Positions 47,141 to 47,955 of a stretch of 64,000 bases of DNA are shown piece after piece; position 1 is the first letter of the stretch, and each line of letters opens with the position of its first letter. The stretch covers positions 7,936,001 through 8,000,000 of the forward strand of contig OX597843.1 in NCBI GenBank assembly GCA_951406725.2, in the 5' to 3' direction. Source of the DNA: Octopus vulgaris. Taxonomy: Eukaryota. Made by a program: the position numbers and the translations under genes. A model generated the notes under the pieces. The model ran no database searches. It was given only the letters and a program-made list of their open reading frames with translations, and was not told where the DNA came from.

Positions 47141-47955
47141 CCAATTAAGGACTGAACACGAAAAGTGGACAGTCAACATGCTAGATATAGACGTCAAATC
47201 GCCATTCTCCACAAAAAGTCTATGTTCTCAGATCAAACTCAACACAAAACCAAAACAATAAACAAGTGAAAAATATACGAAATAAATATTTACCCATGTA
47301 CTAAATTTAGTTTCGGTTGTTATTTTCCTTAATTGGTATATATAAATATTTTAATCTTCGGATTCTTTCTTTAATATGCTAGACCACTGGTTCTAATTGA
47401 TAAATATCAATTTTTACCCTAAATTTTAATTTTATATAAATATTTGTTCTCTAACCGATAAATTAACTGCTGCTAACTATTAGCTGCAGGCTAGTTTTCT
47501 CGGGTCTCATCGCGCCAAAAGTAGAGACATTTGAAATATATATTTCAAATGTAATAGGCCGTACTCCATGCACGCGATATTTCGGTATCGTGTTGGCATT
47601 TAGTATAGCAAATTGCATTTTATATGGGACCATGCTGATGATGGTTGCACTTTTCCTTGCGGAAAATAACAACCGAAACTAAATTTAGTACATGGGTAAA
47701 TATTTATTTCGTATATTTTTCACTTGTTTATTGCTTTGGTTTTGTGTTGAGTTTGATCTGAGAACATAGACATTTTGTGGAGAATGGCGATTTGACGTCT
47801 ATATCTAGCATGTTGACTGTCCACTTTTCGTGTTCAGTCCTTAATTGGTATATATAAATATTTTAATCTTCGGATTCTTTCTTTAATATGCTAGACCACT
47901 GGTTCTAATTGATAAATATCAATTTTTACCCTAAATTTTAATTATATATAAATAT
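47141..47955 (+). mobile_element. Non-autonomous Penelope-like element: inverted arm plus partial tandem repeat plus hammerhead
   Basis: 47141-47328 is the reverse complement of 47661-47848; 47327-47443 is a direct repeat of 47839-47955; TA-rich flanks. Confidence 0.78.
47630..47695 (+). ncRNA. Canonical type I hammerhead ribozyme
   Basis: ccatg CTGATGA t ggttg..ttttcc-ttgc-ggaaaa..caacc GAAA CTAAATTTAG TA catgg; three helices; GUA cleavage after 47690. Confidence 0.85.

Follow-up and report, generated by a model that had tools for sequence, protein, structure and literature searches.

Within the 64,000-nt stretch of Octopus vulgaris DNA analysed here (the window), where microsatellites, short interspersed repeats and LINE fragments are plentiful, a two-armed insertion initially delimited as 47141-47955 lies between TA-rich tracts (Table 1). 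Its left arm is the reverse complement of 47661-47848 (188 nt, two mismatches, 98.9% identity) and is followed by a direct arm in which the segment 47326-47443 recurs at 47838-47955, with one mismatch over 118 nt and a spacing of 512 nt. The direct arm amounts to about 1.2 units of a 512-nt repeat, carries a single complete hammerhead and reads across the predicted ribozyme cut site with no scar; the inverted arm contains the 3' half of the hammerhead only, in antisense. The two arms stand head-to-head with unequal outer ends (about 47848 and about 47943), and positions 47849 to about 47943 form a one-sided "tail" of some 95 nt that is absent from the inverted arm. The arm match and the repeat spacing confirm the order inverted A, B, C, A, B (B being the direct repeat) proposed in a preliminary description of this DNA, which had also correctly seen that the inverted arm ends within helix II of the hammerhead, position 47661 falling in the apical hairpin of that helix, and that there is no coding capacity: the longest stop-free frame of the unit is 71 aa, and a Pfam search of the unit gave no match. 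The unit folds better than its shuffled versions, whether treated as linear (z -5.6) or as circular (z -4.7).

The right end had been set at 47955, and here we depart from the preliminary description. The element probably ends at about 47943, because the sole mismatch of the direct repeat is at 47944 and contigs from other copies enter (TA)n near the equivalent place, 47425-47432, including loose ends of contigs from sequencing runs X10 and X11 at 47425-47426. The last 12 nt, up to 47955, are likely to be TA-rich target. A TA run with one AAA imperfection flanks the insertion on both sides, and no target-site duplication can be called because the unit itself has the same run. Beyond these tracts lie two pieces of host repeat, the left one of which we take to be SINE-like; 48442-48610, where the two are found close together, is an apparent empty-site analogue of the insertion. 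A fold-back pair of the neighbouring host repeat (47943-48302, 171-nt arms, 90%) directly adjoins the element.

Table 1. Coordinates of the insertion, its flanks and the other two-armed elements of the window
Feature	Position	Strand	Remarks
3' part of common host repeat, left of target	47007-47068	+	97% match to 48442-48508
Left (TA)n target microsatellite	47069-47140	.	36 TA copies
Inverted, 5'-truncated short arm	47141-47328	-	Outer (3') end corresponds to unit position 47848, inner end to 47661
TCC microhomology (3 nt) at inversion junction	47326-47328	.	Arm and B coordinates overlap
Full 512-nt unit (B-C-A)	47326-47837	+	33% GC
Predicted type I hammerhead, Penelope-type	47630-47695	+	Predicted cut after 47690
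3' segment common to related repeats that diverge upstream	47791-47848	+	Highest summed depth; loose ends before 47784/47791
Second, partial copy of unit start (B2)	47838-47943	+	End backed by loose ends of other-copy contigs
Right TA-rich target	47944-47962	.	B match runs on to 47955 by chance-like similarity
Host repeat right of target	47966-48052	+	Joined to left piece by 15 nt only at 48442-48610
Second two-armed family, first insertion	4742-4990	+	91% column identity between the two insertions
Second two-armed family, second insertion	39052-39283	-	See previous line
Third two-armed element, between TA tracts	about 5037-5317		Hammerhead-like core at about 5221-5275; inverted arm longer

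The second two-armed family is unrelated to the focal 512-nt family. Its two insertions share the same long outer end and nearly the same short outer end, with TA on both sides, and differ in their inner joints, which are near-palindromic; their tail measures about 70 nt and their hammerhead-like core is degenerate. A 9-nt word, ACCACTGGT, is common to the tails of the focal and second families (47895-47903 and 4930-4938) and may be due to chance. Another well-formed type I hammerhead, with a 12-bp helix II and a palindromic helix III, is found at 38898-38983 within a different repeat that ends in (TA)n near 39028. Alignment of five hammerhead-like motifs of the window revealed no common sequence.

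Elsewhere, the window contains an apparently intact LINE at 26927-30322 (-), with a 1132-aa endonuclease-RT-zf frame (Pfam RVT_1, Exo_endo_phos and zf-RVT) preceded upstream by a 414-aa frame without a Pfam match (30636-31877, -), and fragments of a mariner-type transposase (24836-25252, +) and of a second reverse transcriptase (33702-34388, +). A perfect tandem array at 20560-21529 repeats a GC-rich 70-nt unit 13.9 times with 100% matches, and three copies of a 247-nt unit, presumably Helitron-like, occupy 54714-55468.

The hammerhead motif

In the predicted ribozyme, helix I (47630-47634 with 47691-47695) is followed by the core CTGATGA (47635-47641), a 5-bp helix II closed by an apical hairpin (47643-47647 with 47670-47674), GAAA at 47675-47678, a palindromic helix III (47679-47688) and then GUA. 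There is an extra U at 47642, between the core and helix II, and a G10.1-C11.1 pair. Hammerheads of Penelope elements are distinguished by a base between positions 9 and 10.1, a G10.1-C11.1 pair and a palindromic helix III (PMC4209133), and all three marks are present at 47630-47695. A type I descriptor picks out two loci in the window, where 200 locally shuffled windows give 0.005 on average; its strict version retains the focal locus alone, with none in any of the 200 shuffled windows. The helix coordinates and these shuffles bear out the presence of a palindromic hammerhead at this place, as previously claimed. The qualification "textbook" does not stand, given the extra U, the palindromic helix III of Penelope type and a score below the Rfam thresholds: Rfam gives no match at gathering in the window, and no hammerhead is found among the eight matches at E<=10.

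Variation among family members in public sequencing runs supports the predicted hammerhead fold, notably through a compensatory change in helix II. The pair 47645-47672 is U-A in the focal copy and C-G in most of the family (depth 109,809/111,048 and 129,147/129,935 for the two positions in run X2, and all of run X10), while 47643-47674 is G-C in the focal copy and G-U in most of the family. Variants of helix III remain palindromic: one in X2 has lost 2 nt at 47683, and a loose end of X11 shows a palindrome of 8 nt. None of the 35 listed substitutions falls in the 15 core bases, which chance allows, about one being expected. Within the full-length RNA the fold carries little weight, with probabilities of 0.05-0.09 for the pairs of helices I and II, and an isolated 96-nt hammerhead folds no better than shuffles (z -1.4). 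A loose end in X2 at 47620 reveals related copies in which the core reads CCGAAGA and not CTGATGA, a hint that there are sister families whose ribozyme cores are altered.

A palindromic helix III allows a dimeric hammerhead fold (PMC4209133), and this feature suggests that the predicted ribozyme would cut best as a dimer in tandem arrays. In Xenopus, eight of nine retrozyme dimers are reported without cleavage in vitro (10.64898/2026.07.22.740005), which, like the low pair probabilities of the fold, counts against activity. The focal copy is likely to be unable to release a monomer circle itself, because it has only one complete ribozyme.

The repeat family in public sequencing runs

Parts of the stretch were found in 20 runs from 11 studies. 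Run X2 alone yields 1,040 contigs on the 512-nt unit, and summed depth over the ribozyme region reaches tens of thousands, against 9-92 for the single junctions (the 15 listed of 22), which suggests a family on the order of a thousand copies, depth being no copy number. An identical ribozyme contig of 86-87 nt occurs at depth 788 in X2 and 670 in X3; given this contig and the 15 of 512 positions at which the focal copy differs from the X2 majority, we assign the focal copy to a small subfamily. Its description as a young insertion is a fair one in view of the divergence of about 1% between its arms, though those same 15 differences from the family majority have to be kept in mind.

Runs X10, X11 and X14, which we only guess to be RNA, contribute contigs that each cover part of the unit. 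Three records of X11 (10, 11 and 13) are contigs that bridge A-B and B-C in other copies, so that the 512-nt unit is closed. This bears on the reading in which the unit is only a pseudo-LTR belonging to an autonomous, longer Penelope element, the locus being heavily truncated and no separate small mobile RNA existing. Copies of Penelope are mostly 5'-truncated and their pLTRs carry hammerheads (PMC8557442; PMC4209133), and the loose ends of contigs show that the 3' segment is common to repeats that diverge upstream, all of which would suit such an origin. However, the unit closes on itself, as A-B-C-A-B here and through the bridged joints elsewhere, and no piece of an ORF is found at either of its ends, whereas Penelope pLTRs are described as including the ORF start (PMC11167929; PMC3846280). 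We consider this origin improbable.

Joints between the inverted arm and the direct copy were recovered from short contigs in four runs. The best-supported 15 of 22 use 14 arm points and 15 direct starts, and therefore the inner junction varies between copies; which arm bears the tail is not shown by these joints. Symmetry to within 10 nt is seen in eight of the 15, a selected subset, where permutation gives a mean of 3.7 (P 0.003). Summed depth, a crude measure, peaks at 47794-47865 and declines upstream, the profile expected of copies that share a fixed 3' end and are 5'-truncated. The outer ends of the family appear to be fixed and unequal, at about 47848 and about 47943. The preliminary description had raised the prospect of permutation points varying from copy to copy; judging by loose ends, joints and the second two-armed family, this applies to the inner junction, while the outer ends look fixed.

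The same observations weigh against a MITE or fold-back DNA transposon in which the long arms would be terminal inverted repeats and the hammerhead a passenger. Arms that are 99% identical, a TA target and many copies are what one would expect of such an element, but the outer ends differ by about 95 nt, one arm exceeds a unit, the inner junction depends on the copy among the listed joints, and the ribozyme covaries. Equal terminal inverted repeats around a constant interior are not what is found, and we regard a DNA transposon as very improbable.

The three letters at 47672, 47674 and 47736, which are in the minority in the family, are common to both arms; together with the symmetric joints, this fits an origin of both arms from one molecule. 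As a sign of a circle, we also considered a joint that goes back by 512 nt and rejected it, since it lies within B, where the partial tandem would itself produce it. Similarly, the summed depth of X10 steps up just after the predicted cut and a contig of X11 spans the cut; these are contigs only and are not counted as evidence.

An endogenised, independently replicating viroid-like circular RNA would account for a well-folded unit of viroid size with a hammerhead. Yet the ribozyme is present in one polarity only rather than in both, the unit has 33% GC, and what the DNA runs contain is a many-copy genomic family, while an exact 24-nt core pattern has no match in viral and metagenome contigs. 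Such an origin is, in our view, highly unlikely.

A candidate route of insertion

The locus is very probably a single insertion of a 512-nt repeat, non-coding, present in many copies and equipped with a predicted type I hammerhead, which the reverse transcriptase-endonuclease of a Penelope-like element wrote in trans into (TA)n. Penelope insertions are described as a partial tandem with an adjacent inverted 5'-truncated copy, a one-sided tail and a (TA)n target (PMC8557442; PMC3846280). Because the focal layout is this published signature, the element is most likely a non-autonomous Penelope derivative of the non-LTR retrozyme type. The preliminary description had overlooked that the layout as a whole is the signature of Penelope-like elements (PMC8557442). 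Its more general view, of a non-coding, hammerhead-bearing mobile repeat of more than one unit, derived by reverse transcription of a circular or multimeric RNA and not delimited by TIRs, agrees with our results. A Pfam scan of 22 of the 111 candidate frames of the window returned LINE and DDE transposase matches only, and no Penelope ORF.

The template would be an RNA of more than unit length, either an uncleaved multimer or a monomer circle, the latter released by two cuts of the hammerhead at some master array and closed by host ligation. A Penelope protein would bind this RNA near 47790-47850, and the common 3' segment (47791-47848) is likely to be what the reverse transcriptase recognises. 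The Penelope endonuclease would cut the TA tract, and reverse transcription would begin at fixed internal points, about 47943 and about 47848, both just before UA-rich runs able to pair with the target, and stop at variable points. On this scheme, synthesis of the long arm would proceed over 618 nt across the ribozyme site, and that of the short arm would halt at the hairpin of helix II, having covered 188 nt. The second arm would come from the same molecule, through priming on the other cut strand or through the first cDNA folding back, and the two arms would be joined via the 3-nt TCC/GGA microhomology.

In vitro, a Penelope protein has been reported to cut AT-rich DNA and extend both strands, with reverse transcription starting at two internal sites, the distance between which corresponds to the tail, and with the same start site used on both strands (PMC11167929). 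Equal start sites in vitro do not by themselves account for arms of such different length. The observed structure would result from double priming as well as from cDNA fold-back, and the symmetry of the joints speaks for a single molecule as the source of both arms.

The presence of more than one unit had been taken to point to a circle. This is unsupported: read-through of a partial tandem without cleavage leads to an identical product, and in vitro a Penelope protein is described as acting mainly on uncleaved RNA (PMC11167929). A circular RNA template is possible for the family and not required; we see the chances as about evenly balanced. A far more specific proposal can be made only tentatively, and we think it rather unlikely as a whole: that the 512-nt RNA is copied as a circle by a Penelope enzyme, that both arms come from each single RNA molecule, that a strict two-start rule (about 47848 and about 47943) applies, that the tail is three times the published length, and that several unrelated hammerhead families in the genome behave alike. 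If true, this would provide a natural set of substrates with which to decide whether Penelope inverted repeats come from double priming or from cDNA fold-back, and to show directly that retrozyme circles serve as Penelope templates.

Comparison with Penelope-like elements and retrozymes

The family is a new one of known kinds, namely retrozymes and non-autonomous Penelope derivatives. In the literature searched (titles and the beginnings of abstracts) we found no paper on a cephalopod retrozyme family; repeat libraries and supplements may hold it. Precedents exist on both sides: families of mussel retrozymes provide a molluscan one (PMC7229834; 10.64898/2026.07.22.740005), and in the literature on endonuclease-bearing Penelope elements (PMC8557442; PMC3846280; PMC11167929; PMC4209133) Chlamys elements (MRC1) are reported to have non-autonomous forms. 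Naiads, which target TA and occur in Octopus, are described as lacking canonical hammerheads (PMC8557442).

As in the published accounts of Penelope-like elements, the focal locus presents a partial tandem, a head-to-head inverted, 5'-truncated copy whose inner junction varies within the family, a tail at one end only and an AT-rich, (TA)n target (PMC8557442; PMC3846280). The likeness extends to microhomology or palindromes at the inverted joint and to a hammerhead with an extra base and a palindromic helix III. In contrast to these elements as described, the tail is about 95 nt long rather than 30-40 nt, and unlike the autonomous ones the unit is without an RT or GIY-YIG ORF.

With metazoan non-LTR retrozymes, as characterised in PMC7229834, the focal family shares a non-coding, low-GC, well-folded and self-paired unit of a few hundred bases, a type I hammerhead and a high copy number, and its layout is not LTR-like. 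Its 512 nt lie within the unit range of 51-972 bp given by Li, Clavereau and Pollet 2026 (10.64898/2026.07.22.740005) and exceed the 170-400 nt reported by Cervera and de la Pena 2020 (PMC7229834). Under the rule of two ribozymes per active copy (10.64898/2026.07.22.740005), the focal locus does not qualify; with 1.2 units and one complete ribozyme, it is therefore a sub-dimer copy of a retrozyme-type family and not an active retrozyme. We found no counterpart of the inverted arm and the tail in the retrozyme descriptions of these two papers, and the word "inverted" does not occur in the main text of PMC7229834.

A link between retrozymes and Penelope elements was proposed in 2020 (PMC7229834) and backed in 2026 by the homology of retrozymes to Penelope pLTRs in Xenopus (10.64898/2026.07.22.740005). 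The octopus family adds one more retrozyme-type unit bearing the Penelope insertion footprint, and through its many different junctions the origin of the inverted repeats and tails of Penelope elements could be tested.
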